Assembly: GCA_040772725.1 (NCBI GenBank)
Contig: JAXGXR010000002.1
Coordinates: 949,223 to 1,013,222 of the forward strand
Length of the DNA: 64,000 nt
Reading direction: 5' to 3'
Origin: Clostridia bacterium
Lineage (GTDB): Bacteria > Bacillota > Clostridia > Saccharofermentanales > UBA5734
In this document: positions 7,707 through 34,938 of the stretch, piece by piece
Numbering within the stretch: the stretch's first letter is position 1
How the letters are laid out: the number at the start of each line of letters is the position of its first letter
Translations under genes and position numbers: made by a program
The notes under the pieces: generated by a model
What the model saw: only the letters and a program-made list of their open reading frames with translations
Database searches by the model: none
Told to the model about the DNA's origin: nothing

Positions 7707-7756
7707 AGAATCATCCTTTCGCGTGTGCCCGGCCATTGGACCGGCTGGTTCGAGGG

Positions 7757-8038
7757 TCATTCCAGATAGTCAACGCTGTACGACGCGGCCCGGATCCTCC
7801 GGACTTCCTCCCGGATCAGCTGATGATAGTCACTGGTGTCATAGCGTTTCAGCCCGTCCATGTCCTTGAAATCAAGAATGAAGCAAAAATCACAGGAACT
7901 GTTCAGGTGAGAGATGTCCTCGCCAGCAGAGACGGCAAGAACGTCGGGGATGTGACGGGCGCAGTCCATCACCAGCGCTTGGCAGCGGGTGGCGTCATAG
8001 CCGTTCTTGAGCCGGATCATGACAACGTGCTTCAACAT
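7757..8038 (-). CDS. Dabb (stress-responsive alpha/beta-barrel) domain protein
   Basis: 93 aa. MLKHVVMIRLK ... HIPDV ... FKDMDGLKRYDTSDYHQ pattern is typical of Dabb family proteins. Confidence 0.7.
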   Translation of the reverse strand: MLKHVVMIRLKNGYDATRCQALVMDCARHIPDVLAVSAGEDISHLNSSCDFCFILDFKDMDGLKRYDTSDYHQLIREEVRRIRAASYSVDYLE

Positions 8039-8060
8039 GTCCTGTCCTTCGTGATTCAGG

Positions 8061-8084
8061 CGTCCGGCCAGGCCCGGCCGGACG
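8061..8084 (-). other. GC-rich intercistronic stem-loop between GRE1 and the Dabb gene
   Basis: CGTCCGGCC / GGCCGGACG 9-bp perfect stem with a 6-nt loop and no U-tract. Likely an mRNA processing or stability element rather than a terminator. Confidence 0.4.
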
Positions 8085-8092
8085 GGCGGGCA

Positions 8093-10838: not shown

Positions 10839-10942
10839 ATGCAAATTGTAACAACCGATACGATTCTGAAAGGGGCGAGGAAACAACCGTTTCGACAACT
10901 TCATTTCTGAACTCGACTACAATGCGAAAGAAAAAGGAGAAA

Positions 10943-11941
10943 ATGAACATGAATCTGAAAAAAGTCATCACACTCCTGTTGGCCTTGGCCATGATCATCA
11001 GCCTCGCGGCCTGTGGTTCGACCGCGACCACCACCGCAGCGACCACCGCCGCGACCACTGGCGGCACCACGGCAGCCGGCCTGGTGAAGGCCGCCTTCAT
11101 CGTCGCCGACATGGCGAACGAGTCCCAGGCTTTCTCTTCCAGAGAATTCCAGAAATATGGTGCGGAATACGGCTTCGATGTCACGATCCTTGACGCCAAG
11201 GCTGACACGCAGACCGAGTCCAAACTGGTCACCAACTGCATCGCGCAGGGAATGAAGGTCATCTGGCTCAACCCGAATGACATCAAGGCCATCGTCCCCA
11301 GCCTGATGGAGGCAAAGAAAGCCGGCATCACCATCGGCATGTTCTCATCCGACCTCGGCACTGCCGATCAGCAGTACCGCGACTTCTTCTGCGGGGTCAA
11401 TGACCTGCAGGCCGGCGAAGCGGCTGCCAAAGCCTTCATGGACAAGTTCCCGAACGGCGCCAACATCGTCGAAATCGGCGGCCAGTCCGGCCATGATGCG
11501 CAGATCAAGCGCCATGACGGCTTCAACAAGGTCATCGCCAACACCAACATCAAGGTCATCGACTACCAGGCCCCGACTGCCTGGTCGACCGAGCAGGCCC
11601 AGAAGATAGCCGAAGACATGATCGTCCGCCACGGTGACAAGATCGAAGGCATCTTCTGCCACTGGGACAACGGCGCCACCGGCATCATCCAGGCCCTGAA
11701 GACCGCCAACAAGAGCGGTGTCTTCCTGGTCGGCGTTGATGGCAACAAGGCCGGGTTCGCCCAGGTCAAGGAGGGCACCCAGTCCGTAACCATCTCCCAG
11801 AACTTCACCAACATGACCAAGAAGTCGCTCGAACTGGCCAGGGACAAAATCGCCGGCAAGACAGTCGAGCAGATCAACTTCATCCCGCTCGATGTCATTT
11901 CCCAGGCCAACATCAGCCAGTTCCCGACACCGGAGTGGTGA
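10943..11941 (+). CDS. sugar ABC transporter substrate-binding lipoprotein (ribose/PBP1 type)
   Basis: Signal peptide plus lipobox (IISLAAC), followed by a Thr/Ala-rich linker and a periplasmic-binding-protein type I fold pattern. AAGGAG RBS before ATG 10943. Confidence 0.85.
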   Translation: MNMNLKKVITLLLALAMIISLAACGSTATTTAATTAATTGGTTAAGLVKAAFIVADMANESQAFSSREFQKYGAEYGFDVTILDAKADTQTESKLVTNCIAQGMKVIWLNPNDIKAIVPSLMEAKKAGITIGMFSSDLGTADQQYRDFFCGVNDLQAGEAAAKAFMDKFPNGANIVEIGGQSGHDAQIKRHDGFNKVIANTNIKVIDYQAPTAWSTEQAQKIAEDMIVRHGDKIEGIFCHWDNGATGIIQALKTANKSGVFLVGVDGNKAGFAQVKEGTQSVTISQNFTNMTKKSLELARDKIAGKTVEQINFIPLDVISQANISQFPTPEW

Positions 11942-11966
11942 TTTGCGTCAAACGGTAGACTGCCAA

Positions 11967-12012
11967 GGCAAAGCTCGTTCTGGACGCATTCAGCTCCAGA
12001 ACGGGCTTTGCC
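11967..12012 (+). other. intercistronic stem-loop between the SBP and ATPase genes
   Basis: GGCAAAGC-t-CGTTCTGGA / TCCAGAACG-g-GCTTTGCC gives 17 paired bases with a 10-nt loop and no U-tract. Confidence 0.5.
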
Positions 12013-12042
12013 GATGCATCCAGTGCAAAAGGGGCTAGAGAT

Positions 12043-13563
12043 ATGGCAAACGCAGCATCAGAGTATATCCTTTCGGTCAAGGATGTCAGCAAGACGTTCC
12101 CTGGCGTCAAAGCCCTTGACCAAGTGACGTTTTCCGTCAGGCGAGGAACGGTCCACGGCCTTGTCGGTGAAAACGGCGCAGGCAAATCGACCCTGATGAA
12201 GATCCTGTCAGGCGTCTATGTGAAAGATACAGGCACCGTCATTTTCGACAATGAGGAAGTGGTCAGCACCACACCGATCAAATCCATGCACAGCGGCCTC
12301 AGCATCATTTATCAGGAACTCAACCTGGTCAACACCCTGAGCGTCGGAGAAAACATCTTCCTTGGCCGTTTTGGCGAAATGAAAGGCATGAGCGGCATCC
12401 ACGCGAAAGCGAAGGAACTGCTGGACAGCATCGGCTGCCGTTTTGACTCGCACACCATGGTCGACGACCTGAGCGTGTCTGAAAAGCAGATGGTGGAAAT
12501 CGCCAAGGCCCTTTCTTACAAGTCGAAGCTGATCATCATGGACGAGCCCAGCTCGAGCCTGACAGCTGACGAAATGAAGGAACTCTACAAGATCATCCAT
12601 CAACTGAAGGACCAGGGCATTTCGATCATATTCATCAGCCACAAGCTGGATGAGATCTTCGAGCTTTGTGACGTGGTGACCATCCTGCGCGACGGTCGCG
12701 TCATCGACACCAAGCCAGCCGTGGACCTGACCCGCCAGGAGATGATCGCCAAGATGGTGGGCCGTACAATCGAGAACGAATATCCCGAAAGACCCTGCTG
12801 TATCGGCGAGGTGCTTCTGGAAGTCAAGGATATCAACACCCGAAAGCTCAAGAATGTTTCCTTCAATGTCCGGAAGGGAGAGATCCTCGGCCTGGTTGGC
12901 CTGGTCGGTGCGGGCCGCACGGAGATTGTCAGGGCCCTGTTTGGCGCGGACAAGGCGCATGGCCACGAGGTCCTGGTGGATGGCGTACCGGTTCGGATCA
13001 AAAAGCCGAGCCAGGCGATCAAGGCCGGGTTCGGTTTTGTCCCTGAGGATCGGAAACAGCAAGGGCTGGTCCTGCCGTTTTCTGTCGAATCGAACATCGC
13101 CATGGCCAGCCTGGACAAGATCACAGTCCGTGGGATCCTGCGCAAGTCCATCGAGAAACAGATCGCCGAAAAGCATGTCAAGTCCCTGGGCGTGAAAACC
13201 CCGTCCATCAAGACCAAGGTTGTCAGCCTGTCGGGCGGCAACCAGCAGAAATGCATCATTGGCCGCTGGCTGGAGATCGAACCGAAAATCTTCATCATGG
13301 ACGAGCCAACCCGCGGTATCGATGTCGGCGCCAAATACGAAATCTATGTCCTGATGAAAGAGATTGCCGAACGCGGTGGCGCTGTCATCCTGATTTCGTC
13401 CGAGCTCCCCGAGGTTCTCAACATGAGCAACCGGGTCCTGACCATCTTTGAAGGCAGGATCACTGGTGAATTCGATCCCCAGGCATTCACGCCCGACCAG
13501 ATCATGGCGAGCGCGCTCGGGATGGGCAGTATGGAGGTGGCGCAGCATGCAGGTCAACACTGA
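12043..13563 (+). CDS. sugar ABC transporter ATP-binding protein (duplicated NBD, RbsA/MglA type)
   Basis: 506 aa. Walker A GENGAGKST, signature LSVSEKQ, and a second NBD with GLVGAGRTE and LSGGNQQK. Confidence 0.9.
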   Translation: MANAASEYILSVKDVSKTFPGVKALDQVTFSVRRGTVHGLVGENGAGKSTLMKILSGVYVKDTGTVIFDNEEVVSTTPIKSMHSGLSIIYQELNLVNTLSVGENIFLGRFGEMKGMSGIHAKAKELLDSIGCRFDSHTMVDDLSVSEKQMVEIAKALSYKSKLIIMDEPSSSLTADEMKELYKIIHQLKDQGISIIFISHKLDEIFELCDVVTILRDGRVIDTKPAVDLTRQEMIAKMVGRTIENEYPERPCCIGEVLLEVKDINTRKLKNVSFNVRKGEILGLVGLVGAGRTEIVRALFGADKAHGHEVLVDGVPVRIKKPSQAIKAGFGFVPEDRKQQGLVLPFSVESNIAMASLDKITVRGILRKSIEKQIAEKHVKSLGVKTPSIKTKVVSLSGGNQQKCIIGRWLEIEPKIFIMDEPTRGIDVGAKYEIYVLMKEIAERGGAVILISSELPEVLNMSNRVLTIFEGRITGEFDPQAFTPDQIMASALGMGSMEVAQHAGQH

Positions 13564-14542
13564 TATCCGGCAAGGCAAAAATCCGGTCATGGCGCGGTTC
13601 GGCACGTATGTCAAGGACAACCTTGTCCTCGTGGGCATCATCGTGCTGGTCCTCGTCACGATCATCGTCCAGCCAAACTTCCTGTCCCCGCTGAACATGA
13701 CCAATATCCTGCGCCAGTTCGGCCCCCTGAGCCTGGTGTCACTCGGCATGACTTTCGTCATCCTAGGCGGCTTCATCGATCTTTCCGTCGCGGGCACCTT
13801 CTCGCTGGTGGCGGTCGTCACCATATCATTGATCGATCCGATCGGACAGGTGCCGGCCCTGATCGTCGGCCTGATCATCGGCGCGGCCTGCGGGTATATC
13901 AACAGCCTCCTGTGCCTGACCTCGGGAGCCCTGACACAGGCTGAGGCCCTGTTCATCACTTTCGGCATGCAGCTCGTGTACAGCGCGGTGGCCCTGATCT
14001 ATTGCGGCGGCGCCACCCAGCACATGCGCAATGTCGAAGGTAACAAATCCGTTTTTGAAGCCATTGGATCCGGCATGGTCGGCTTTCTGACGATCACGTT
14101 CATCATTTTCCTGGTCTGTCTCGCGATCCTGTATTTTTTCCAGTCGAAAACCTACATGGGCCGGACGATCAGCCTGACCGGCGGCAACAAGACCGCGGCC
14201 AGGCTTACGGGACTGCCTGTCGAACGCTCGATCATGATCATCTACACCCTGTCAGGACTGATGGCCGGCCTTGGCGGCATCACCCTCTTTTCCCGTGTAA
14301 CCACCGCCTCGCCGGTTCTGGGCGCCGGGTATGAGACAAATGCGATCCTGTCCGTCGTTGTCGGCGGCACGTCCTTGAAAGGTGGCAAAGGCAGTGTCCT
14401 CCGAACCGTTCTCGGCACCCTGCTCATCATCCTCATGTCCAACTGCCTGAATCTGCTGGGTGTCTCACCCTTCATGCAGAACATGGTCAAAGGCTTGATC
14501 CTGGTTGTCGCCATCTGGCTGGACAACCGGAAGCCGCTGTAG
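13547..14542 (+). CDS. sugar ABC transporter permease (RbsC/AraH type)
   Basis: Multi-TM protein. Start placed at ATG 13547 behind GGAGGTGG, overlapping the ATPase gene end. Confidence 0.85.
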   Translation: MQVNTDIRQGKNPVMARFGTYVKDNLVLVGIIVLVLVTIIVQPNFLSPLNMTNILRQFGPLSLVSLGMTFVILGGFIDLSVAGTFSLVAVVTISLIDPIGQVPALIVGLIIGAACGYINSLLCLTSGALTQAEALFITFGMQLVYSAVALIYCGGATQHMRNVEGNKSVFEAIGSGMVGFLTITFIIFLVCLAILYFFQSKTYMGRTISLTGGNKTAARLTGLPVERSIMIIYTLSGLMAGLGGITLFSRVTTASPVLGAGYETNAILSVVVGGTSLKGGKGSVLRTVLGTLLIILMSNCLNLLGVSPFMQNMVKGLILVVAIWLDNRKPL

Positions 14543-14548
14543 GAGGGG

Positions 14549-15520
14549 ATGAGCATGGAAATCAAATCAATGGCCAAGACAGTCGGGAAACTTGCCGTCA
14601 AGCAGAAGGCCACGGTGGCCATCCTCGCCATGCTGGTGCTGATGCTGTTTTTCCCCACCAATTTCTACACAGCCTATAACCTGATCGACCTGCTGAATTC
14701 GTCCGCGATCCTGATCATTCTCGCGGCCGGTGTCAGCATCACGGTCATCGCCGGTGGCTGTGACCTGTCAATCGGCGGTGTCATGGTGACTTCCGGCATC
14801 ATCGCCATCCAGCTGATGCCGAAACTGGGCATGTTCCTGGCGATTCTGATCGCGCTGCTGAGCGGTGTCGTCATCGGATTCGTCAATGGTTTCCTCGTGG
14901 TCCAGCAGAAAACAGAGCCCTTCATCATCACGCTCGGCATGGGCATGCTGCTTAGCGGCTTTGCCCAGCAGCTGACGAACGGGCGGGCTGTCCAAGGCGA
15001 GGTCCCGGCGTACATGCAACTGGCCAACGGACGAATTCTCGGGCAGATCACCAACCTGGTCATCTTCATGATCGTTGTCATTGCCGCCATGCATTACGTG
15101 ATGCGCTACACCACATTCGGTCGCAACTGCTATGCCATCGGTGGTGACTATGAAGTTGCCCGATATTCCGGTATCTCGGTCATTTTCACCAAATGGGCGA
15201 CCTTCCTGATCAGTGGATTCATCGCGGCTTTGGCAGGCGTTCTTCTGTCATCCAAGCTCAATTCGGGATCGTACCTCTACGGTGAGAACATCGCCCTGAT
15301 CGTCAACTGCGGCTGTGTCGTCGGCGGTGTTTCTTTCGCAGGCGGTGTCGGCAGCATTCCGCAGGCTGCGCTGGGCCTCCTGGTGTTCGGCGTCCTGGAG
15401 AATGCCATGAACATGCTGGGCATCAGCTCCTACATCCAGATCCTCCTGAGAGGCATTGTCATCGTCGCGATCATCTGGCTCGACTGCTTTGGCCGGAAAC
15501 GCAAGCGTGAGCTCGTTTAA
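14549..15520 (+). CDS. sugar ABC transporter permease (second RbsC-type subunit)
   Basis: 323 aa, multi-TM, paralogous to the preceding permease. AGGAGGGG RBS. Confidence 0.85.
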   Translation: MSMEIKSMAKTVGKLAVKQKATVAILAMLVLMLFFPTNFYTAYNLIDLLNSSAILIILAAGVSITVIAGGCDLSIGGVMVTSGIIAIQLMPKLGMFLAILIALLSGVVIGFVNGFLVVQQKTEPFIITLGMGMLLSGFAQQLTNGRAVQGEVPAYMQLANGRILGQITNLVIFMIVVIAAMHYVMRYTTFGRNCYAIGGDYEVARYSGISVIFTKWATFLISGFIAALAGVLLSSKLNSGSYLYGENIALIVNCGCVVGGVSFAGGVGSIPQAALGLLVFGVLENAMNMLGISSYIQILLRGIVIVAIIWLDCFGRKRKRELV

Positions 15521-15606: not shown

Positions 15607-16419
15607 TCAGGACGTTTCCGGTTTGTTGGTGAAGGTGACCCGATAGGCCGCTGGCGACAGGGAAGTCATCCGCTTGAAGAGCTTGGCGAAATGCTTGGAA
15701 TCCTCCAGACCGACAAAACTGGAAATGGCGCTGATCTTGCTGTCTGTCTGGACCAGCATTTCCCGTGCGACTTCCATGCGGTACCGGTTCAGATACAGGA
15801 TCGGCGTCGTGCCGAAACGTCGCTTGAACATGCGGTTCAAATAGGAAGGGCTGACGAACATCTCCTGTGAAAGCCGGCCCATGTCGATCGGCTCGGAAAA
15901 ATGCTCCTGGATGAACTGCATGCATTTTTCCGCGATGTTCGCTTTTGGCGCCTGGTATTCATGGGAGATTTTCTGCATCTGGCTGATCAGGAGGTTGATC
16001 AGGTCATTGAGCAACTGCTGCTGATATGGCCCTTCGTGATGGAATTCATGATGGATCTGGCGCATCAGCCAGCGGAGAATCCCCTGTTCATCCTTGAGTT
16101 TGAACAGCCGGTCGAATGGCAACGCGGCCTCGCACGACAAATGCAGGCAGATGACCGCCTGATGGTAACGGGTGTCAAGGTATTCCTGATGCGCCACGTG
16201 AGCCGGATAAACCACCAGTTCAAAGAGCGACAAGGCCATGGTGCGATCCTTGTCCTTGATGTCCGCCTTCCCTTCCAGGAAATAGATCAGCTCGATCAGC
16301 GAATGTTCGTGCCGATTGTAATTCCAGATTCTGCTCTTTTCGTCAAACTGCTCACAGAAGGTGGCCCGGCAGTTGCCGGCATGGAGAGATGCCAGATATG
16401 CGTCAGGCATCTTTGACAT
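15607..16419 (-). CDS. AraC-family transcriptional regulator
   Basis: 270 aa. N-terminal cupin-like sensor and C-terminal double HTH (ISSFVGLEDSKHFAKLFKR). Its start overlaps the upstream gene by 17 nt. Confidence 0.85.
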   Translation of the reverse strand: MSKMPDAYLASLHAGNCRATFCEQFDEKSRIWNYNRHEHSLIELIYFLEGKADIKDKDRTMALSLFELVVYPAHVAHQEYLDTRYHQAVICLHLSCEAALPFDRLFKLKDEQGILRWLMRQIHHEFHHEGPYQQQLLNDLINLLISQMQKISHEYQAPKANIAEKCMQFIQEHFSEPIDMGRLSQEMFVSPSYLNRMFKRRFGTTPILYLNRYRMEVAREMLVQTDSKISAISSFVGLEDSKHFAKLFKRMTSLSPAAYRVTFTNKPETS

Positions 16420-18238
16420 TCCCGAAGTAGATCGCGCCGATCGCCTGGGCGAACTGGGCGACGGTGTAGTCCCTATCGGCCTCCAGCTGTTTCATCAGAC
16501 GAGTATTGGCGATTGACCCGTCGGCGACTTCAAAGACAAGGTCTGGCACGATCGAGCGTGCCCCCTGCTGCATGAGTTCGAAGCAACGCGGATTCTTGAC
16601 CAGACGCCCGAACAGGACCCTCGATTTTGCCTTCGGTTCCAGGATCATCTCCGTCTGCGCGAACGTGACTGCCAGGTATTGCCCGATGTCGATGAAAATC
16701 TGGTCACAGAGTGGATCGTTTTCCCGATCCACCAGGTCCATCAGATACTGCAGAAATGGTTTGCGCTGGTCGATGGGCTCGGTCGGGACCACTCGCTCGA
16801 CCATGCCATCGTGTTCACGAGTGACGATGAAGCCCTTGTCGACCATTTCCCGGTACAAATCAGGCCGCCCCTGCTCGAAATAGCGGATCGCGAGACGGAA
16901 CGCACCGCTCTGGCTGGCGTATTTCTGCAAGGTGCCGGCCAGTCCGGTGTTGAAATTGTTGATACTACGGAGATCGTCACAATGGAACTGTCGCGCGCGA
17001 AAGCTGCCTAGATCGATCACAAAGTTGTACACTTCGAGCGGAATGTCCGGAATCGATCCTGTTTCATCGATCCAGCCGGTTCCCAGTTCCGTGCCGAGCG
17101 TGTGGGCGAACACGCCATCGGCCAACCGGTCGGCCTGATCGGAAAATGCCTGTTCCACGGCTGCAGTGAAGGAGGCCATCGGACCGTCGTTGGTCATACG
17201 GACCTTGCCGTCCGTCTTGCAGAACATCTTCAAGTGGCTGTCCAGATCAGTCAGTTTGGCAAACTCGACTTCATAGTCAATGTCCGGGTTCTCCCGCATG
17301 CCCCGCGTCTTGTACACTTCGCCACCTACGATCTTGTTCTCGACAACGACATCGGGGAAACACAGGCCGATCGCGTCGAAAGCCAGCAGGCGATCGCCGA
17401 GCCTTGATTCGGCATCCAGGATGATTTCTTTCATCCGATCGAGCGGGCACGCTCGTTCCATGGCCTCGTCGAGGACCGGGTCAAGGGACGCTCGCAAGGC
17501 CTGGTCATGAAGATCGAGCTGGGTCAGACGGGCCCGGACGAGCCGAACCAGCAGCAGGATGGGGTCGATCATCTCATGCGCTTCACGGAACTGGGCGGGA
17601 AACCAGTCGTATTCCTTGAAACAGCGGATGTCACGATTGACGCTGGCCGCCACCTTGATGTCCGTTCCGCCGACATCAATGCCAAGAAGAACTTTCCCAT
17701 CAAGGTCGGAGGCTGCGGCGACAAACTTCTGCAAAGCGTTCCCGCTGACTTCATTTCGCGTGGAAGGTGCTTGAAATGCCATTGTCTCCGGCCGTCCCGC
17801 CAGGAAACGGAACCGGTTTCCTCCGTCGGGTCCATGATCGAGATGCTCGAGCATCCGGTCAATGACATTGATGCATTTGCCATAGCCGCTCCGTTTCGCA
17901 CGTGGCTGGTGAATGCAAAACAGTCGGTCCAGCTCGTCAATCAATCCGGAAAGCCAGGGCAGTCGGTCGTCCAGGTCAAGGAATAGCCGGCGCCCACCGA
18001 GGCTGGAAAGGATATTGTAAATGATCGCGCTCACATACGACCGGACAAACAGGACATGCTCCTCTTCAAGGTCCGGATCGCCAGGCAAGGCCAGGTCGAA
18101 CCGCTTGTAACTCCCGTCCAGCCGTTCCAGCGTGAGTGTCAGCATGCTTTGGGGTGACAGACGCGAAAACGCGGCGGCCACATCATGGATGAACACGGGT
18201 TCGTCGGATCTGGCCTTTGCCAGCAAAGAATCGATCAT
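16403..18238 (-). CDS. ASKHA/ROK-like ATPase domain protein with an uncharacterised ~200-aa N-terminal domain
   Basis: LLGIDVGGTDIKVA phosphate-1 motif and GTELGTG phosphate-2-like motif, but no ROK zinc Cys cluster. Start moved to ATG 18238 behind AGGAGG. Confidence 0.6.
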   Translation of the reverse strand: MIDSLLAKARSDEPVFIHDVAAAFSRLSPQSMLTLTLERLDGSYKRFDLALPGDPDLEEEHVLFVRSYVSAIIYNILSSLGGRRLFLDLDDRLPWLSGLIDELDRLFCIHQPRAKRSGYGKCINVIDRMLEHLDHGPDGGNRFRFLAGRPETMAFQAPSTRNEVSGNALQKFVAAASDLDGKVLLGIDVGGTDIKVAASVNRDIRCFKEYDWFPAQFREAHEMIDPILLLVRLVRARLTQLDLHDQALRASLDPVLDEAMERACPLDRMKEIILDAESRLGDRLLAFDAIGLCFPDVVVENKIVGGEVYKTRGMRENPDIDYEVEFAKLTDLDSHLKMFCKTDGKVRMTNDGPMASFTAAVEQAFSDQADRLADGVFAHTLGTELGTGWIDETGSIPDIPLEVYNFVIDLGSFRARQFHCDDLRSINNFNTGLAGTLQKYASQSGAFRLAIRYFEQGRPDLYREMVDKGFIVTREHDGMVERVVPTEPIDQRKPFLQYLMDLVDRENDPLCDQIFIDIGQYLAVTFAQTEMILEPKAKSRVLFGRLVKNPRCFELMQQGARSIVPDLVFEVADGSIANTRLMKQLEADRDYTVAQFAQAIGAIYFGNVKDA

Positions 18239-18522
18239 AGAGCCTGCCTCCTGTACGCATATCCTGGCCTTCGTCCTGATTATCTTCATTCTACCGCACC
18301 GCAGGTGCCTGTGGATAGGATCATTCATTGCCTACAGGTGGACAGAACTGAACTTGCCGACCGTTTTCGGCCCATTTTGAAAGCAGGGGTCGAAACAGGA
18401 CCTTTCTGGTTCAATGGCAGACACCATCAGGCTTTTTTTGGCGGATGACTTCACCACTGGCAGGGGGTAAAATGGAGACAAGGCAATCGGCGCACACCCA
18501 TGGCTTGAACGGAGGGTTTACC

Positions 18523-20916
18523 ATGAAGTCACCTGTCCATTTGAATGATCAGCAAATCGCCAGACTCAACCAGACGCCGCAGACATTGCGGATTGAAACA
18601 TTAAAGCAGAAAATGCTCGATGAGCCACGCTACATGTCGATTGAACAGGCCAGAATCATCACTGCGGTGTATCAGGCCAATCCGGACAAGCCGGTCATCC
18701 TGAAACGCGCGCTTTCTCTTCGGGCTTCGCTCGAGCAGCTTGAGATCGCGATTGAGCCTGAAGAACTGATCGTTGGCAACCGGACACGTGGCGTCCGCGG
18801 CGGTGTCGTGTTCCCGGAGTCGGGCGCTTCCTGGATCGACCGGGAAATCGAAACGTTGCCGACCCGGCCCCAGGACCGGTTCAATGTCCGGCCGGAGGAT
18901 GTGGTCGAGTTCCGTGAAAAGATTTATCCGTACTGGAAAGGCCATTCGCTCGAGGACCGGATTGTCGAGGCGGGTGGGGAAGAGATCAATGCGATCGCCA
19001 AGGTCGTCAAGATCAACCAGAAGGACCACGCGCAGGGTCATATCTGTCCGGATACCGAACTCTGGCTGGAAAAGGGACCGGCCGGCTTGCGCAAACAGGC
19101 TGAAGACCTGATTCAGACCAGTTCGGGCGAGGCGCATGACTTTTACGCCAGTGTCATCGAGGTCCTGACCGGCGCGAGCCGATTCATGGAACGTTACGCT
19201 GAACTGGCGACCGGGATGGCGTCCGATGAAATAAACGCCCCAAACCGGGAAAACCTGCTTGAGGTGGCCAGAATCTGTCATAAATTGGCTTCTGCGCCAC
19301 CGGAGACCTTCCATGAAGCGGTCCAGTCGATGTGGTTCCTGTATGTCATCCTGCACATGGAATCCAATGCCTCGTCATTTTCACCCGGTCGGGCGGACCA
19401 GTACCTTTACCCGTATTATGCGGCGGATCGTGCGTCCGGTCGTCTGGATGACACTCGCGCCCTGGAGATCATCGAGTCCCTCTGGCTGAAATTCAACCAG
19501 ATCGTCTATCTGCGCAATGCGCATAGTGCCAAATACTTCGCTGGTTTCCCCATCGGATTCAACCTGGCGGTCGGCGGACAGCTGGCAGATGGCAACGATG
19601 CGACCAATGAGCTGTCCTACCTGTTCCTGACGGCCCAGGAGCACATCGGTCTGCCACAGCCAAACCTGTCGGCCAGGCTTTACAAGAATTCACCCGAAGC
19701 CTTTGTCCGCCAGTGTGTCCGAGTCGTTGCCAAGGGCAGCGGCATGCCGCAATTCTTCAATGATGAAGCGGTCATACCTGCTCTGATCAATCAGGGGATC
19801 GAGGAGCCGGACGCCAGGGATTATGCCATTGTCGGCTGTGTGGAGTTGACAACCCATGGCAACAACCTCGGCTGGAGCGATGCTGCGATGTTCAACATGC
19901 TCAAGGCTCTGGAACTGACGCTCAACAATGGTGTCTGCCTGGTCAGCGGCGAACGGATCGGACTGCCCCTGGGCGATCTGACCACTTACGCATCCTATGA
20001 AGAGCTGGAAAACGCTTTCCAGAAACAGGTCGACCATTTCATCGACCGGATGGTGAAAAGCTGTGAAGTGGTGGAACGGATGCATCAGGAAGTCCTGCCT
20101 TCACCCTTCTTGTCAACCGTCATTGACGACTGCATGGTGGCCGCGAAGGACGTGACCGCCGGTGGCGCCCAGTACAACCTGTCGGGCATCCAGATCATCC
20201 AGGGTGCCAACATCGCGGACAGTCTGGCAGCTTTGAAAAAACTGGTGTTTGATGAAAACCGCTTTTCGAAAGAGCAGGTGCTGAATGCCCTGCGTGAAAA
20301 CTTTGCCCATGACGAGCCGCTTCGCCTGACCCTGCTCAATCACGCGCCCAAATACGGCAATGACATCGCCTGGGTCGATGATATCGCCAATCACTGGATC
20401 CGCCACTTCAACACCTACCTGAGCCAATATACGAACTACCGTGGCGGTCGCTACCATACGGGTCTCTACACCGTGTCAGCCCATGTCCCGATGGGCCAGA
20501 ACGTCGGCGCCAGCCCGGATGGGCGATTCTCGCGCGAACCGCTGGCCGATGGCGGCATGTCGCCGGTCTATGGTCGTGACATCAAGGGGCCGACCGCCGT
20601 CCTGAAGTCTGTCTCCAAGATCAGCTCCATGTATGGCAGCAATGGGACGTTGCTGAACATGAAGTTCCTGCCGGAATTCTTCACGGAAAGCGGGGTCGAG
20701 AAATTCGCCCTGATGCTGCGGACCTTTGTCGATCTCAAGATCCCGCACATCCAGTTCAATGTCCTGCGTCAGGAGGATCTCCGTGCCGCGCAGAAGGAGC
20801 CGGAGAAATACAGGAACCTCACCGTCCGGGTCGCGGGCTACACCGCCTACTTCACGGAGCTGGCCGGCGATCTTCAGAATGAGATCATCGCCCGCACCAG
20901 CTACGGTGATATCTGA
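18523..20916 (+). CDS. glycyl radical enzyme, PflD/YbiW-like (GRE2)
   Basis: 797 aa. RVAGYTAYF glycyl motif, Cys loop IVGCVELTTHG (Cys codon 19837-19839), and motifs NQKDHAQGH, ESNASSFSPGR, LPQPNL and YTVSAHVPMG. Start at ATG 18523 behind GGAGGG. Confidence 0.9.
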   Translation: MKSPVHLNDQQIARLNQTPQTLRIETLKQKMLDEPRYMSIEQARIITAVYQANPDKPVILKRALSLRASLEQLEIAIEPEELIVGNRTRGVRGGVVFPESGASWIDREIETLPTRPQDRFNVRPEDVVEFREKIYPYWKGHSLEDRIVEAGGEEINAIAKVVKINQKDHAQGHICPDTELWLEKGPAGLRKQAEDLIQTSSGEAHDFYASVIEVLTGASRFMERYAELATGMASDEINAPNRENLLEVARICHKLASAPPETFHEAVQSMWFLYVILHMESNASSFSPGRADQYLYPYYAADRASGRLDDTRALEIIESLWLKFNQIVYLRNAHSAKYFAGFPIGFNLAVGGQLADGNDATNELSYLFLTAQEHIGLPQPNLSARLYKNSPEAFVRQCVRVVAKGSGMPQFFNDEAVIPALINQGIEEPDARDYAIVGCVELTTHGNNLGWSDAAMFNMLKALELTLNNGVCLVSGERIGLPLGDLTTYASYEELENAFQKQVDHFIDRMVKSCEVVERMHQEVLPSPFLSTVIDDCMVAAKDVTAGGAQYNLSGIQIIQGANIADSLAALKKLVFDENRFSKEQVLNALRENFAHDEPLRLTLLNHAPKYGNDIAWVDDIANHWIRHFNTYLSQYTNYRGGRYHTGLYTVSAHVPMGQNVGASPDGRFSREPLADGGMSPVYGRDIKGPTAVLKSVSKISSMYGSNGTLLNMKFLPEFFTESGVEKFALMLRTFVDLKIPHIQFNVLRQEDLRAAQKEPEKYRNLTVRVAGYTAYFTELAGDLQNEIIARTSYGDI

Positions 20917-21944
20917 TGGCAGCCGACCAGGCGGCCAAACCCGTGCAGGAGGCCGGACGGTCCCGGTCGGACATCGACTGGGACCGCCGAGGTCTGGTTT
21001 TTGATATCCGTCGGTTTTCCACGCATGACGGACCCGGCATCCGGACATCGGTTTTCACCAAGGGCTGTCCGCTTCGGTGCCTCTGGTGCCAGAACCCGGA
21101 AGGGATCGAACTGAAGCGCAATTTGTTCTATTTCCGTGAAAAGTGTATCGGCTGCGGGACCTGTGTCGCCCATTGCCCGCAAAAGGCGATCCGGAAAGTG
21201 GACGACAAGATCGCCATCGACCGATCGCTGTGCGATCTGTGCGGCATCTGTGTCGATGTCTGCCCGCCCCAGGCCCTGAGCTTTGATTCGCGGGAGATGA
21301 CGGTACGCGAGGTCGTGAACGAGGTGCTGCTCGACCGGCCGTTCTATCGCGATAACGGTGGATTGACGATCACGGGCGGGGATCCGGTGGTCCAGCATGC
21401 GTTCAATGTCCAGGTCCTCAAGGCGTGCCGGTCTTACGGCATCCACACGGCGATCGAAACGAGCCTTTTTGCGGACCGGAACGTGCTCGAGTCACTTCTG
21501 CCGCACATCAACCTGCTGATCGCGGATTTCAAGGTGTTTGACGAACAGGACCATCTGGCCTGGACCGGCGTGTCCAATGACCGGATCAAGCGCAACTTCG
21601 AATGGATCATTTTGCGTATGAGACAGATGCGGGAGCAGAAAGGACAGCGTGCCGGCCATCAGACACCCGATCCGGAACTGCTGGTCCGGATTCCCATGAT
21701 CCCCGGCCACAACACCACTTTGGAAAACCTTCGTCAGACCGGCGCCTATTTTTACCGGCTTGACCCGACAACCCGGATCGAATTGCTGAATTACAATCCT
21801 CTGGCCATGAACAAATATGTCCTTCTGGAACAGCCCTACCTGTTTGACCAGAATCCCAGAATGTTCACGCAGGAAGAAATGGCTGATTTTGTCCTGGCCT
21901 TGCGGGAAACGGGTGTGGTGGCGTTCGCCGAACCATCCCGTTGA
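20916..21944 (+). CDS. glycyl-radical enzyme activating protein (radical SAM)
   Basis: CPLRCLWC (CX3CX2C) plus two ferredoxin motifs, CIGCGTCVAHCP and CDLCGICVDVCP. ATGA overlap with the GRE2 stop. Confidence 0.9.
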   Translation: MAADQAAKPVQEAGRSRSDIDWDRRGLVFDIRRFSTHDGPGIRTSVFTKGCPLRCLWCQNPEGIELKRNLFYFREKCIGCGTCVAHCPQKAIRKVDDKIAIDRSLCDLCGICVDVCPPQALSFDSREMTVREVVNEVLLDRPFYRDNGGLTITGGDPVVQHAFNVQVLKACRSYGIHTAIETSLFADRNVLESLLPHINLLIADFKVFDEQDHLAWTGVSNDRIKRNFEWIILRMRQMREQKGQRAGHQTPDPELLVRIPMIPGHNTTLENLRQTGAYFYRLDPTTRIELLNYNPLAMNKYVLLEQPYLFDQNPRMFTQEEMADFVLALRETGVVAFAEPSR

Positions 21945-21974: not shown

Positions 21975-22712
21975 TCAGCAGGGAACGGTGATCAACTCGA
22001 TTCCATATCCGCTGATGACTTTGCGTGCGCTTTCCGGGATGCATTCGTCGGTGATGATGACGCTGACCTCGGAGAGAGACAGTTGCTTGGCAACACCCCG
22101 CATGCTGAACTTGCCGGAATCCGTGAGGATGATCGCCTTGTTCGCCCGCTGGGCCATCGCATAGGCGACCTCGGCGCGCTGGAGGTTGATGCAGGTGAAT
22201 CCATCCTCGGAAAAACCATCCGAACCGATGAACACCTTGTCGACAAAAAAGGACTGCAGGGACTGTCGTGTGAGTGGGCCGACGCAAACCTCGGACTCCG
22301 GCTGAAAATCGCCGCCGAGCAGGATGACTTTTGCCCGGGGGTGTTCACGGATGAAACTGGCAATGAAACAGGAGTTGGTGACGATCGTGACATCCTTGCT
22401 CTCGGCGAGTGCCTTGGCAAGCAACGCATTGGTCGAGCCGGACTCGATCAGGATCGTTTCACCCGATTCCACCATCTGGGCTGCCCGTTCCGCGATCCGC
22501 TGCTTGATTTCAAAATTGGAGTGCAATCGATTGGCGACACGTTCAGCCGAGGCGCCACCATGGACTCGCCGGATCAGACCATGCTGCTGCAATGCTTTGA
22601 GGTCACTACGGATCGTCACCTGGGAGACATTGTACTTCAAGGCCAGCTCTGATACAGTTAATTTGTCATTTTCTGACAGGTCCTTGAGGATTTGCATGCG
22701 TCGCTCATTCAT
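21975..22712 (-). CDS. DeoR-family transcriptional regulator
   Basis: 245 aa. N-terminal HTH (LTVSELALKYNVSQVTIRSDLKAL) and a C-terminal DeoR sugar-phosphate-sensor domain. Divergent from GRE3. Confidence 0.9.
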   Translation of the reverse strand: MNERRMQILKDLSENDKLTVSELALKYNVSQVTIRSDLKALQQHGLIRRVHGGASAERVANRLHSNFEIKQRIAERAAQMVESGETILIESGSTNALLAKALAESKDVTIVTNSCFIASFIREHPRAKVILLGGDFQPESEVCVGPLTRQSLQSFFVDKVFIGSDGFSEDGFTCINLQRAEVAYAMAQRANKAIILTDSGKFSMRGVAKQLSLSEVSVIITDECIPESARKVISGYGIELITVPC

Positions 22713-22945: not shown

Positions 22946-25297
22946 ATGCTGGAAAGAATCGAAAGTCTCAGAAAATTTGTCATGGAAAGCCCGCGCCAGG
23001 TGTCTCTGGAGCGCGCACTGATCCACAAGGAATCCATGGAGGCCTCCGCCGGTCTGCCGGAGATCATCCGGCGCGCCATGTCATTTGGCCACATGGTGTC
23101 AAAATTCGAGATCGCGATCCATCCCGGTGAACTGATTGTCGGCGGGAGAACGGCCAATCCAAGGGCCGGAGTCGTGTCGGCCGGCCTGGGGGCCGACTGG
23201 CTGATGGAAGAACTGGACACGATCGCGACACGTGCGGTCGATCCGTTCCAGATCAGCCCGGCACAAAAACAGCTTTTCCGTGATGTGCTTTATCCGTATC
23301 ACAAAGGTCATGACATGCGGTCACGGATCGAGGCGGATCTGTCCGATGAGCAGAAAGCGGCCCGGGATGCCGGGATTTTTCGCCTCAACCAGACTGACAA
23401 GGGGCAGGGGCACATCCTGCCCGATTATTCGATTCTCCTGAAGCAGGGGATCGGACAGATGATCGAGGCCATGTCGGCCCTCCTGGGAGACCATCCGGAC
23501 AACACATTCTACAAGGCGACCCTGATCTGCTATCGAGGATTCCAGCACCTGATCGACCGATATGCCCGGCTGGCAGCCGATCAGGCTGATCATGAACCGG
23601 ATCCGGCGCGAAAGGCAGAGCTGAGGACCATCGCCGTCAACCTGAAATCCATCCGGGAAGCGCCGCCGGCAGATTTTCATCAGGCCTTGCAGCTTTTCTG
23701 GCTGACTTGTGTCGCGCTTCAACTCGAGTCCAATGCCAGTTCAATCTCGATCGGCCGTTTTGACCAGTTCATGCTACCCTATTTCCAGAAGGATATCGAA
23801 GAGGACCGGCTGAGTTTCGAACAGGCGCATCTGCTGCTGTCCTGCCTCTGGATCAAGATGAACGAGGTCATCATGATCCGCAGTGAGGACAGCGCCCGCT
23901 ATTTCGGCGGCTTTCCGACCGGATACAACATGGTTCTGGGCGGGATCACCAGCGACGGGTGGGACGGGACCAACGCGCTCAGCTATCTTTGCCTGGAGAT
24001 CACGAATGATCTTCGCCTGCCTCAGCCAAACCTGTCGGTCCGGGTCCACGCGAGCACCCCGACTTCGTTCTTGAAAAAGTCGTCCGAACTGGTGGCACAG
24101 GGATTTGGCATGCCCCAGATTTTCAACGATGATACGATCATCGAGACGCTGGTCAAGGAAGGAGTCAATCGGGAGGACGCCAAAGATTACGCGATTGTCG
24201 GCTGTGTCCAGCTGTCCATACCCGGCAAGATGTATGGCATGCCCGATGTCGCCCTTTTCAACCTGTTGAAATGCCTGGAGCTGGTGATTCACAGGGGGCT
24301 GGATCCGATCACCGGATCCACGATGCCGGTCGAGCTGGTGGATGGCCATGAGAGTCGATTTGAAAACTTCGAACAATCCGTGATGGAAACGGTGCGGCAC
24401 TATGTCCGTCAGGCCTGCCTCGGTGCGAATGTCGTTGACCGGGCACACCAGGACCTGGCCCAGGTGCCGCTGTTGTCGACCCTGATGACGGGATGCGCTG
24501 AAAGCGGCCGGGACATGACAGCAGGCGGGACCCGCTACAACTTCACCGGCCTTCAGCAGACCGGCATCGCCAATCTGGCCGATGCCATGCTCGTGATCCG
24601 CTCCGTGGTGTTTGAACAGCGGCGGATGACACTCGCTCAGTTGAGCCGTATCCTGCTGGACAACTACGCCGGGCATGAATCGATCCGACAGTCATTTATC
24701 GAAGACTACCCCAAGTACGGCAACAACATTGATGCGGTCGACACATTGGCGAACCGTTATCTGAAAAAATTCTGCGAGTTTGTATCGGCCAACACCAATC
24801 CGAGGGGTGGTCGGTTCTCGCCCGGCAGCTACACGGTGTCGGCCCACATCCCGATGGGGAAGAAGGTGGGGGCGACCCCGGATGGCCGCATGACCGGCAC
24901 AAAACTGGCGGATGGGGGACTGGCGCCCAGTGCCGGCCGGGATCTGCTGGGTCCGGTTTCGCTACTCAAGACGGTCAGTCGTCTGGACAGCGAGCTCTTG
25001 TCAAACGGCAGTCTGCTCAACATGCGGTTCAGCCGCGCCTCGTTTGTCGAGGCGGACAGTTTCGACCGATTCTTCCGGCTGATCAAGCTGTTCATCAAAC
25101 TCAAGCTCCTGCATATCCAGTTCAGTGTGGTGGATGAATCGTACCTGCGGGACGCCCAGACGCATCCAGAAAAGTATCCTGAACTCATGGTCAGGGTCGC
25201 CGGGTACACGGCCTATTTCAAGGACCTGGGCCGGGAGGTCCAGGATGACATCATCGACCGTTGCGCGAACAATATGGAGTTGAATGCGGATGAGTGA
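22946..25297 (+). CDS. glycyl radical enzyme, PflD/YbiW-like with a variant Cys loop (GRE3)
   Basis: 783 aa. RVAGYTAYF (Gly codon 25202-25204), and motifs LNQTDKGQGH, LESNASSISIGRFDQ, ARYFGGFPTGY and YTVSAHIPMG. The Cys loop reads IVGCVQLSIPGK, with Gln where the family normally has Glu. Confidence 0.9.
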   Translation: MLERIESLRKFVMESPRQVSLERALIHKESMEASAGLPEIIRRAMSFGHMVSKFEIAIHPGELIVGGRTANPRAGVVSAGLGADWLMEELDTIATRAVDPFQISPAQKQLFRDVLYPYHKGHDMRSRIEADLSDEQKAARDAGIFRLNQTDKGQGHILPDYSILLKQGIGQMIEAMSALLGDHPDNTFYKATLICYRGFQHLIDRYARLAADQADHEPDPARKAELRTIAVNLKSIREAPPADFHQALQLFWLTCVALQLESNASSISIGRFDQFMLPYFQKDIEEDRLSFEQAHLLLSCLWIKMNEVIMIRSEDSARYFGGFPTGYNMVLGGITSDGWDGTNALSYLCLEITNDLRLPQPNLSVRVHASTPTSFLKKSSELVAQGFGMPQIFNDDTIIETLVKEGVNREDAKDYAIVGCVQLSIPGKMYGMPDVALFNLLKCLELVIHRGLDPITGSTMPVELVDGHESRFENFEQSVMETVRHYVRQACLGANVVDRAHQDLAQVPLLSTLMTGCAESGRDMTAGGTRYNFTGLQQTGIANLADAMLVIRSVVFEQRRMTLAQLSRILLDNYAGHESIRQSFIEDYPKYGNNIDAVDTLANRYLKKFCEFVSANTNPRGGRFSPGSYTVSAHIPMGKKVGATPDGRMTGTKLADGGLAPSAGRDLLGPVSLLKTVSRLDSELLSNGSLLNMRFSRASFVEADSFDRFFRLIKLFIKLKLLHIQFSVVDESYLRDAQTHPEKYPELMVRVAGYTAYFKDLGREVQDDIIDRCANNMELNADE

Positions 25298-26234
25298 GTT
25301 GACGCCCGAACAAAGGAACACCTATCTGGCGACACGAGGCATCGTGTTCAATATCCAGCGCTTCAGCATTCACGATGGCCCGGGCATCCGGACAATCGTG
25401 TTCATCAAGGGTTGCCCCCTGCGCTGCCAGTGGTGTTCCAACCCCGAATCACAGGATCCGAAGCCTGTCCTCATGTTCTCACAGAAAAAATGCATCAGCT
25501 GTGGCCTGTGTGAAAAAGCCTGCCCGCTGGACGCGATCTCTTTTGTCGACAGTCCTTATCCGAAAATTGATCGCAGCATTTGCGACAACTGCGGCAAATG
25601 CGCCGAAGTCTGCTGCACGGAAGCGCTCTATATGGAAGGCAAAAGCATGTCGGTCGAGGAGGCCATGACAGAGGTCATGAAGGACAAACCCTTCTATGAC
25701 AATTCGGGCGGCGGACTGACCCTTTCCGGTGGCGAAACCCTTGCCCAGCCAAATTTCGCTCACGCGCTCCTGGCGATCGCCAAAGACCGGGGCCTTCATA
25801 CGGCTGCGGAAACGACCGGCTTTGCCCAGCCGGAGGTCCTGAAAAAAATCGTATCCAAATTGGACTTGGTCCTTTATGACTTCAAGCATGTCGATCCGGT
25901 CCGACACCTCGAAAAGACCGGGGTCGACAATACACAGATTCTTGAAAACCTGAAAATGCTGTGCGAGATGAAAGTCCCTCTGGTCGTGCGCATTCCGATC
26001 ATCCCGGGATTCAATGACGCGCTTTCAGATGCCGCTGAATTCGGTCGCCTGCTCAGTGAACTGAAAGTTGAAGAAGTCAATCTGCTTCCGTTCCACCAGA
26101 TGGGAGAGCACAAATACGAACTGCTTGGCAAACCCTATGCTTACAAGGGTGTCAAGAGCCTGCGCGAAGAGAGCCTTGTCGAGTACCGCCAGATCATGGC
26201 CGATTTTGATCTCGACGTCAAAATTGGTGGCTGA
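25284..26234 (+). CDS. glycyl-radical enzyme activating protein (radical SAM)
   Basis: 316 aa. CPLRCQWC plus CISCGLCEKACP and CDNCGKCAEVC motifs. Overlaps the GRE3 end. Confidence 0.9.
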   Translation: MRMSELTPEQRNTYLATRGIVFNIQRFSIHDGPGIRTIVFIKGCPLRCQWCSNPESQDPKPVLMFSQKKCISCGLCEKACPLDAISFVDSPYPKIDRSICDNCGKCAEVCCTEALYMEGKSMSVEEAMTEVMKDKPFYDNSGGGLTLSGGETLAQPNFAHALLAIAKDRGLHTAAETTGFAQPEVLKKIVSKLDLVLYDFKHVDPVRHLEKTGVDNTQILENLKMLCEMKVPLVVRIPIIPGFNDALSDAAEFGRLLSELKVEEVNLLPFHQMGEHKYELLGKPYAYKGVKSLREESLVEYRQIMADFDLDVKIGG

Positions 26235-26335
26235 ATGAATTTTTTATGAAGAATGGAACTTTTTCCGTGCCATGACGTCTCATAACCAAATACGTGTGAT
26301 GCACCGTATGGATATATGACAGAAAGGTGATGACC

Positions 26336-27055
26336 ATGAAAAAATTATCGATCATAATCCTGGTGCTGGCTGTCCTGACGGCTGTGGCCGGCTGCGGATC
26401 CGCCGCGACCACGACGGCCGCGACCACGACAGCGGCAACAACGACAACTGCAACAACGACGACGGCTGCGACTACCGCGCCGACGACCGCAGGGACAACA
26501 CAGCCGACTACAACCCCGACAACAGCCCCGACCACGCAGCCATCCCAGACGACGACTCCGACGACGACCGTTGAGCCGACCCCGACAACCGTGGTCCATC
26601 CGGTCTACCAGGACACAATCGAGATCGAAGGCATGGAAGAGACGGTCAACTACCGTTTGACAGAGGGCCGTTATGATTATGCGATGCCGATGGATATCGA
26701 CCGCTTCCTGTTCCGCGAAGGGGAGGAGGCCGACTTCTTCCGCAGCATTGCGAACGATTTGGTGTTCCTGACAGTCACCTACATCGAGGACACGGACAAT
26801 CAGACAGAGACCGCGATCCGGACCAATGTCGCCGAGGGGATCACCGCGACGGCCAGCACCGGAAAACTCGGTGAACATGATGCCGCGATTGTCCATGTCA
26901 CCTATGGGGATCAGCCGGACAGCAAGGTCATGGATTTCTTCCTGATCGAGGATGACGGCGGGGTCTATGAGATCAACCTGGTGTATACGATCGCGACTGC
27001 TGAAGGCTTTGGCGCTCGCATGTCAGCCATGGCCGAGGGTTTCGTCATCCGCTGA
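26336..27055 (+). CDS. lipoprotein with a long Thr/Ala/Pro-rich linker, unknown function
   Basis: Signal peptide and lipobox (LTAVAGC), about 75 aa of T/A/P low-complexity linker, then a ~150-aa globular domain with no motif I recognise. Start is ambiguous (GTG 26327, ATG 26330 or ATG 26336). Confidence 0.7.
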   Translation: MKKLSIIILVLAVLTAVAGCGSAATTTAATTTAATTTTATTTTAATTAPTTAGTTQPTTTPTTAPTTQPSQTTTPTTTVEPTPTTVVHPVYQDTIEIEGMEETVNYRLTEGRYDYAMPMDIDRFLFREGEEADFFRSIANDLVFLTVTYIEDTDNQTETAIRTNVAEGITATASTGKLGEHDAAIVHVTYGDQPDSKVMDFFLIEDDGGVYEINLVYTIATAEGFGARMSAMAEGFVIR

Positions 27056-32170: not shown

Positions 32171-32180
32171 GTCTTGAAAA

Positions 32181-32215
32181 AAAGAAAGCCCGGGGCTGAC
32201 CCGGGCCTTCTTTAT
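32181..32215. terminator. bidirectional terminator hairpin
   Basis: GCCCGGG-gctga-CCCGGGC stem flanked by AAAAAAAGAAA and CTTCTTTAT. Lies between convergent genes. Confidence 0.65.
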
Positions 32216-32245
32216 GTTCCATCAGACAATACCGGATGTGATCTG

Positions 32246-34843: not shown

Positions 34844-34938
34844 AAACGTTTTCTCCTTCAAATTGGGGATCATATTGGGGATCATATGGATGATTTGACC
34901 GGGATGGCAATCAAGTGGATTATGCTGGTGGGAATCGG

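Follow-up and report, generated by a model that had tools for sequence, protein, structure and literature searches.

The locus

The locus described here lies in a 64,000-nt stretch of contig JAXGXR010000002.1 from a Clostridia bacterium (the window; window coordinates are used throughout). It centres on GRE2, an oxygen-sensitive glycyl radical enzyme (GRE) that is encoded directly upstream of its own radical S-adenosylmethionine (SAM) activase, AE2, and divergently from a long kinase-like gene, X611; nearby genes encode an AraC-family regulator and an ATP-binding cassette (ABC) importer (10922-15520). These are the partners that a first-pass annotation of this DNA had assigned to GRE2, and our gene calls agree with it:

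10922-11941, + strand: lipoprotein substrate-binding protein, RbsB-like, of a ribose-type (CUT2) ABC importer (family models)
12043-13563, + strand: ABC ATPase with two ATP-binding domains (family models)
13547-14542, + strand: permease 1 (BPD_transp_2), start at 13547 or 13589
14549-15520, + strand: permease 2 (BPD_transp_2; Pfam)
15607-16419, - strand: AraC-family regulator, its start overlapping the end of X611 by 17 nt
16403-18235, - strand: X611, 611 aa, no Pfam model, ROK-like ASKHA core by fold and motifs
18236-18522: divergent intergenic region between X611 and GRE2, 287 bp, weak promoter-like consensus matches on either strand
18523-20916, + strand: GRE2, 797 aa, glycyl radical enzyme of a PflD sister clade, with Cys439, Glu441 and Gly772
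20916-21944, + strand: AE2, predicted radical-SAM activase for GRE2, with C51x3C55x2C58 and two ferredoxin-type Cys motifs

The open reading frame (ORF) of GRE2 spans 18445-20916, and the start codon within it is assigned to 18523, where GGAGGG stands 7 nt upstream; an identical 797-aa protein carrying PF02901 and PF01228 is present in the public database (P0001). Both observations uphold the start chosen in the first-pass annotation, and all of the motifs that it quoted (NQKDHAQGH, ESNASSFSPGR, LPQPNL, GMPQFFNDE, GCVELTTHG..GWSD and YTVSAHVPMG..SPDGR) occur in the translation. GRE2 scores 822 bits against TIGR01774, the PFL2/glycerol-dehydratase GRE subfamily (cut-off 678), and AE2 scores 279 bits against TIGR02494 (cut-off 174). 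The Cys loop (GC439VE441) and the glycine loop (RVAG772Y) are invariant in the alignment, where C439 and E441 align with C431 and E433 of the PflD homologue 8ID0, that is, with its catalytic Cys and with the Glu that deprotonates the C2-OH. The start of AE2 overlaps the GRE2 stop codon by 1 nt. Judged by these sequence features, GRE2 is an intact glycyl radical enzyme that is translationally coupled to its activase. Promoter and terminator scans returned weak consensus matches at most.

The importer shows the CUT2 pattern of a Peripla_BP_4-type binding protein, a tandem-domain ATPase and BPD_transp_2 permeases. With E. coli FsaA and FsaB, a clostridial Fsa, GldA, FrwB, FrwC, FrwD and PtsA as queries, tblastn found no match at E<=1e-3 to an Fsa aldolase, to GldA or to a Frw-type phosphotransferase system (PTS) in the 64-kb window, and Pfam scans of the other large ORFs revealed no TAL_FSA domain, in agreement with the earlier statement that neither an aldolase nor a PTS is visible. 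The same scans showed no microcompartment or aldehyde-processing genes near GRE2.

Placement of GRE2 among glycyl radical enzymes

Among solved structures GRE2 matches that of E. coli PflD best (8YJO, 661 bits), and next the PflD homologue 8ID0 with bound 1,5-anhydromannitol-6-phosphate (AM6P; 618 bits); further matches are glycerol dehydratase (585 bits) and YbiW (485 bits); GRE2 is 43% identical to PflD and 37% identical to YbiW. Together with two other enzymes, one of which (GRE3) is 40% identical to GRE2, it makes up a set of three GREs of the PflD/YbiW type within one island of the window:

8093-10504, - strand: GRE1, YbiW-clade GRE, 54% identical to E. coli YbiW (100/100 bootstrap)
22946-25297, + strand: GRE3, PflD-lineage GRE (identity to PflD 44%) in which Cys-x-Gln replaces Cys-x-Glu
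25284-26234, + strand: AE3, putative activase of GRE3 (sequence comparison)

A neighbour-joining tree (100 bootstraps) was calculated for 138 GREs, comprising 125 full-length representatives of 50%-identity clusters from a search of 1.84 billion proteins, the three GREs of the window, five close GRE2 homologues, and E. coli PflD, YbiW, 8ID0, glycerol dehydratase and 9RCO. GRE2 falls within a clade of its own (100/100), which joins PflD, 8ID0 and GRE3 in a superclade (100/100); inside the latter, PflD pairs with 8ID0 (100/100) and GRE3 is added at 94/100. GRE1 groups with YbiW (100/100), in another clade than GRE2, and the clade of glycerol dehydratase is likewise separate (100/100). The nearest outgroup representative, P0245, has no informative gene context on its 3.8-kb contig. 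From its separate position in the tree, its 43% identity to PflD and its 774.9 bits on the PflD equivalog model NF007437 (cut-off 1109), we conclude that GRE2 is PflD-like, a member of a distinct PflD sister clade and not PflD proper; GRE3 also scores below this cut-off (857.9 bits). Of the earlier description of GRE2 as PflD/YbiW-like, the clustering with PflD stands at the level of the superclade, but GRE2 is neither PflD itself nor part of the YbiW clade.

Two wirings of the GRE2 clade

The closest homologues of GRE2 (73-83% identical) lie in islands of like content, which contain a YbiW-like GRE with a ROK kinase and a DeoR regulator, an ABC importer directly upstream of GRE2, an activase, a Pfam-less protein of ~615 aa and an AraC regulator, and in some cases GRE3-AE3 as well. 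Gene contexts came from two scans, one of species-representative genomes with X611 as the seed, which yielded 24 loci, and one of metagenomes with GRE2 as the seed, which added 80 loci, many of them of human-gut origin. GRE2, AE2 and X611 occur together in 17 of the 24 X611-seeded loci, from Clostridia, Spirochaetia, Planctomycetota, Christensenellaceae and other Bacillota, and at these loci the importer is usually the same (55-80% identical, or 55-69% for the binding-protein copies that adjoin GRE2). Since this gene set recurs in many unrelated genomes, the association of GRE2, X611 and the importer goes far beyond chance.

The pooled set holds 92 loci with the Cys-loop signature of the GRE2 clade, 26 with X611 and 66 without. 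An ABC importer is present at 22 of the 26 X611 loci and at none of the other 66 (Fisher p=1.6e-17), whereas Fsa and/or a Frw-type PTS is found at one X611 locus as against 28 of the others (Fisher p=1.6e-4). That the linked PTS is of the Frw type follows from its EIIC, which is 52% identical to FrwC (44% to FruA, 37% to FrvB), and from its EIIB, which is 65% identical to FrwB. The GRE2 clade is accordingly wired in two nearly exclusive ways, either with a Frw-type PTS and Fsa or with a ribose-type ABC importer and X611. In the tree of the clade, a single derived subclade that branches from among the ABC/X611 lineages takes in the PTS/Fsa loci, and the subclade of the window is its sister. In a gut operon of the first type (L038), genes for DeoR, a shikimate-dehydrogenase-like protein, a PRD regulator, EIIA, EIIC, EIIB, the GRE, the activase and Fsa follow one another, which is the logic of E. 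coli frw-pflDC/fsaB gathered into a single operon. One X611-type island (L014) includes an Fsa gene (17335-17985), and another locus (L051, 255-4969) displays a third wiring, with GRE, activase, a true ROK kinase and Fsa. AraC genes are present at 10 of the 26 X611 loci, and 38 loci consist of GRE and activase only (e.g. L071), with no linked pathway genes.

These contexts also bear on whether GRE2 could be an ordinary diol- or glycerol-type dehydratase, or another eliminase, that acts on a small unphosphorylated substrate and has its neighbours by coincidence. Its score to glycerol dehydratase does come near that to PflD (585 vs 661 bits), and the Cys-x-Glu and His residues that eliminases share are present in it. 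However, GRE2 shares a superclade with PflD at 100/100, apart from the glycerol dehydratase clade, the synteny with a kinase-like gene, a sugar importer, a PTS and Fsa is kept across phyla, and the surroundings of GRE2 contain none of the microcompartment or aldehyde-processing genes sought; we consider such an enzyme highly improbable here.

X611, a ROK-kinase-like protein

X611 matches no Pfam or NCBIfam family at E<=0.01, failing the ROK model PF00480 among others, and has no sequence match in the PDB. Its family numbers more than 1300 proteins, all of which lack a Pfam domain and which, where they have a name, are called 'hypothetical protein'. In 46 diverse members, which average 54% column identity, DxGGTD, NDGPMA and HTLGTELGTGW are invariant, and the protein of the window carries them as DVGGTD, NDGPMA and HTLGTELGTGW. 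With the AlphaFold model of X611 (predicted local distance difference test score, pLDDT, 90.7; predicted template-modelling score, pTM, 0.90), Foldseek retrieved ROK glucokinase (2QM1, E 8e-12), N-acetylglucosamine kinase, N-acetylmannosamine kinase and Mlc, at target TM-scores of ~0.7 and an identity of ~15%. The alignment of X611 with ROK by hhalign has a probability of 95% and places NDGPMA on the ROK catalytic ND motif and HTLGTELGTGW on phosphate-2. The ROK zinc motif CxCGxxGC is absent from the 46-sequence alignment, which holds one invariant Cys (C552). Residues 1-178 make up a confidently modelled N-terminal domain (pLDDT 87), for which no structural match was found in the PDB (best E 0.24). 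By modelled fold and motifs X611 is ROK-kinase-like and stands outside the ROK family proper, so that the divergent kinase-like gene of the first-pass annotation does have the features of a sugar kinase. We propose that X611 is an anhydro-sugar kinase.

A different role for X611, as a sugar sensor/regulator or some other ATPase, would leave phosphorylation to the ROK kinase encoded at 6729-7760 or to a housekeeping kinase. Consistent with this, the non-catalytic ROK-fold repressors Mlc and NagC are among the structural matches, X611 is translationally coupled to AraC in the window, a ROK kinase is present at 10 of the 26 X611 loci, and the large N-terminal domain has no assigned function. Yet no helix-turn-helix (HTH) domain was detected in X611, its ATP-binding motifs and catalytic Asp are invariant across the 46 homologues, its distribution is complementary to that of the PTS, and at 16 of the 26 X611 loci no ROK gene was found within the flanks examined (up to ~10 kb on each side, several loci being shorter). 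A regulatory or other non-kinase role for X611 thus appears improbable to us.

In one related island, L005, a divergent X611 paralogue (7064-8938; 34% identical) follows GRE3-AE3 and not GRE2-AE2, and hence X611-family proteins may pair with more than one GRE lineage.

Substrate and proposed pathway

Within the GRE2 clade, the conserved pocket segments KDHAQGHICP, ESNASSFSPGR, FAGFPIGFN, GCVELTT[HQ]GNNLGWSD, YNLSGIQ, YHTG[LM]YTVSAHVPMG and GGMSPVYGRD are common to the PTS and the ABC wirings. Since a PTS delivers phosphorylated sugar only, the clade most likely acts on a sugar phosphate, and a phosphorylated substrate would in turn call for a kinase in the ABC wiring. Given that the pocket motifs are identical in the two wirings, the substrate of GRE2 itself is very probably a sugar phosphate. 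The first-pass annotation had offered two options for this locus, a PTS-independent variant of the PflD/YbiW route or a new substrate. The former is strongly supported by the finding that one clade with one set of pocket motifs is linked either to a Frw PTS and Fsa or to an ABC importer and X611; the latter keeps its place as an alternative and is considered below.

On balance we favour the view that GRE2/AE2 is a PflD-type glycyl radical C-O lyase ('isomerase') of anhydroglycolysis in a PTS-independent wiring, in which ABC import, phosphorylation by X611 and ring opening precede cleavage by an aldolase encoded elsewhere. In such a pathway the ribose-type ABC importer would take up a free 1,5-anhydro-hexitol, which X611 would phosphorylate with ATP. 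AE2 would put a radical on Gly772 of GRE2; the Cys439 thiyl radical would abstract the C2 hydrogen while Glu441 deprotonates the C2-OH; the ring C1-O5 bond would break, and quenching of the keto radical would yield a 1-deoxy-ketose-6-phosphate. An Fsa-type aldolase encoded outside the window would then split this product into glyceraldehyde-3-phosphate and hydroxyacetone. The proposal builds on the family membership, catalytic motifs, phylogeny and synteny of GRE2, on the distribution of PTS/Fsa versus ABC/X611 and on the fold and motifs of X611, all of which the analysis shows; the chemical steps, the sugar and the position phosphorylated are what we infer from homology and gene context.

As for the sugar phosphate, AM6P or a very close analogue seems the most likely. 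AM6P is the simplest choice because most X611 islands hold GRE2 alongside a YbiW-like GRE, an arrangement that matches the PflD/YbiW pair of E. coli, because the PTS of the GRE2 clade is Frw-type, and because Fsa needs the fructose configuration: the aldolase is specific for the D-threo configuration, which limits the product to a sugar like 1-deoxyfructose-6-phosphate.

Several observations weigh against this view of the locus. GRE2 stays well under the PflD equivalog cut-off (774.9 vs 1109 bits), with 43% identity to PflD, and the island also holds GRE3, a closer relative of PflD than GRE2 is. Among 283 columns conserved in both PflD/8ID0 and the GRE2 clade, 75 differ between the two, and the differences include 8 of the 10 positions after the Cys loop. 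No aldolase gene was found in the 64-kb window by tblastn, and X611-type loci do not carry one as a conserved component. A ROK fold may belong to a regulator and not to a kinase. Finally, X611 homologues exist without any GRE within 10 kb, at L020 (8019-11836) and also at L015, L018 and L019; these are 46-47% identical and lie in a group of URO-D-like, ROK and X611 genes among housekeeping genes, and it follows that the X611 family is not exclusively GRE-linked.

The pocket differences suggest that the substrate of GRE2 may not be AM6P, considering how many of the co-conserved columns differ and that they do so near the Cys loop. Other changes from PflD to the GRE2 clade are K152 to H, FPTGYT to FPIGFN and FxPGxY to YHTGLY. 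A scan for basic residues specific to the PflD superclade gave two candidates, R87, which is retained in the GRE2 clade, and K152, which is His there. By analogy with other GRE structures we take the differing segments (the Cys-loop extension, FPIGFN, YHTGLY and position 152) to line the pocket. At Cys+7, PflD has Arg, YbiW has Lys and GRE2 has Asn; a role of this basic residue as a phosphate ligand was rejected, given that glycerol dehydratase, with a non-phosphate substrate, also has Lys at this position.

It is conceivable, then, that the wiring is as proposed and that the substrate of GRE2 is a third cyclic-ether sugar phosphate, with GRE1 taking 1,5-anhydroglucitol-6-phosphate (AG6P) and GRE3 or another enzyme taking AM6P. 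Three paralogous GREs in one island face two known substrates; it is GRE3 and not GRE2 that groups with PflD (94/100; 742 vs 661 bits to 8YJO); the invariant signature of the GRE2 clade (KDHAQGH, FPIGFN, GCVELTT[HQ]GNNLGWSD, YHTGLY) is unlike that of PflD/8ID0; and at L011, L016 and L021 two or three binding-protein paralogues stand in tandem. On the other hand, most X611-type loci pair GRE2 with a YbiW-like GRE alone, mirroring E. coli YbiW/PflD, and a Frw-type PTS and Fsa accompany members of the clade, just as they do E. coli PflD. The D-threo specificity of Fsa restricts the product in the same way as above, and GRE3, which is without the catalytic Glu, may be the diverged paralogue. Altogether we regard a third substrate for GRE2 as unlikely, although far from negligible, and retain AM6P in a PTS-independent pathway as the preferred reading.

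GRE1, GRE3 and the remainder of the island

Three further genes of the island accompany the GRE modules:

5890-6702, - strand: shikimate-dehydrogenase-like oxidoreductase, passing the NCBIfam AroE cut-offs
6729-7760, - strand: ROK-family kinase downstream of GRE1 (family model match)
21975-22712, - strand: DeoR-family regulator between the GRE2 and GRE3 modules (family model)

GRE3 has its own activase, AE3, and its Cys loop (~24199-24216) reads GCVQL, with CAG as the Gln codon. To our knowledge, all characterised eliminase/isomerase GREs have the general-base Glu at this position. The Gln is kept in the GRE3 orthologues of L004 and L005, and was seen at the Cys-x-Glu position in one other protein among ~226 GRE homologues with a recognised Cys loop. 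GRE1 has no adjacent activase in the window. The recurrence of YbiW-like GRE/ROK pairs in related islands suggests that GRE1 and the ROK kinase form a second PTS-independent module, for 1,5-anhydroglucitol, which would borrow AE2 or AE3; the ROK kinase is likely the 1,5-anhydroglucitol kinase of this YbiW-like module.

Taking the three GREs together, we tentatively entertain a broader picture, less probable than the pathway favoured above, in which the island is a multi-substrate anhydro-sugar locus. At least one of its GREs would act on a substrate new for GREs (GRE2 with its own pocket, or GRE3 with Gln for Glu), and X611 would be the first of a new family of sugar kinases, distinguished by a novel N-terminal domain and devoted to supplying such GREs.

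The shikimate-dehydrogenase-like gene is present at 13 of the 26 X611 loci and at two of the 66 others, and one also lies inside the PTS-type operon of L038 (5155-5970). Possible targets of its product are the six-membered ring of the anhydro-sugar, where it might serve as an anhydrofructose reductase or an epimerisation partner, for example, and hydroxyacetone.

The gene directly after AE3 (26327-27055, + strand) encodes a lipoprotein without a Pfam match, whose long linker, rich in Thr, Ala and Pro, resembles that of the ABC binding protein. Further away, a gene for an 879-aa rhodanese-domain lipoprotein (32246-34885, - strand) is made up of three tandem repeats of 819 nt with 99-100% identity among them, which may have arisen by recent amplification or as an artefact of assembly; opposite it runs a shadow ORF of 962 aa (32174-35062). 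Downstream of the island there are two transposase genes (rve integrase core; DDE_Tnp_1), at 50212-51489 and 52780-54009.

Relation to known systems and implications

In E. coli, PflD/PflC together with FrwCBD, FsaB and GldA reportedly constitute the AM6P C-O lyase branch, in work attributed to Ma et al. (JACS 2024) that is said to include the PDB entries 8ID0 and 8YJO. The window shares with this system the superclade of its GRE (100/100), the Cys-x-Glu and Gly-radical motifs, an activase immediately downstream, and ESNASS, LPQPNL, PQxFNDE, YTVSAHVP and LADGG in GRE2, and elsewhere in the GRE2 clade the GRE is found linked to a Frw-type PTS and Fsa. It differs in that GRE2, at 43% identity, belongs to a sister clade, with another Cys-loop extension and His for K152, and in that the locus uses an ABC importer and X611 and not a PTS, with AraC regulation and with no Fsa or GldA adjacent. 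E. coli YbiW/YbiY with FsaA (AG6P C-O lyase; 8ID7 and 8YJN) belongs to the same reaction type and pathway, and its counterpart in the window is GRE1, a true YbiW-clade enzyme beside a ROK kinase; GRE2 itself is 37% identical to YbiW and lacks the YbiW motifs ESNGHS and GC[IV]ETAV.GKWGYRCT. With ROK kinases (glucokinase 2QM1, NagK and NanK) X611 has in common the ASKHA fold, the DxGGT phosphate-1, ND catalytic and GTxxG phosphate-2 motifs. In contrast to these kinases, it is ~15% identical to them, has no Pfam ROK match and no CxCGxxGC, and is twice as long, with large insertions and the 178-residue N-terminal domain that lacks a structural match.

Exchanges between a PTS and an ABC importer plus kinase are common in sugar catabolism. 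As in such swaps generally, the entry step here would be exchanged and the downstream chemistry kept; the difference is that this swap feeds a radical enzyme and involves a kinase of an undescribed family.

The chemistry and the GRE superclade are already known. [quoted passage not shown] The ABC and X611 entry module, the X611 family and the switching of the clade between PTS/Fsa and ABC/kinase are undescribed in the accessible literature, although gene-neighbourhood figures in Ma et al. 2024 may anticipate part of this, and a GRE review of June 2026 makes no mention of a kinase or of ABC entry.

As a sister group of PflD, the GRE2 clade is large and uncharacterised, and its members abound in metagenomes of the human gut. 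Because 1,5-anhydroglucitol serves as a clinical marker of glycaemia and gives rise to a toxic metabolite in two neutropenias, it is of some medical relevance which gut bacteria consume such sugars. In the accessible literature anhydroglycolysis has PTS entry only, in E. coli and gut bacteria; a conserved entry through an ABC importer and a kinase, if true, would widen the range of the pathway to include Clostridia, Spirochaetia, Planctomycetota and Christensenellaceae that are without the PTS version, and would give a testable function to the more than 1300 Pfam-less 'hypothetical proteins' of the X611 family.

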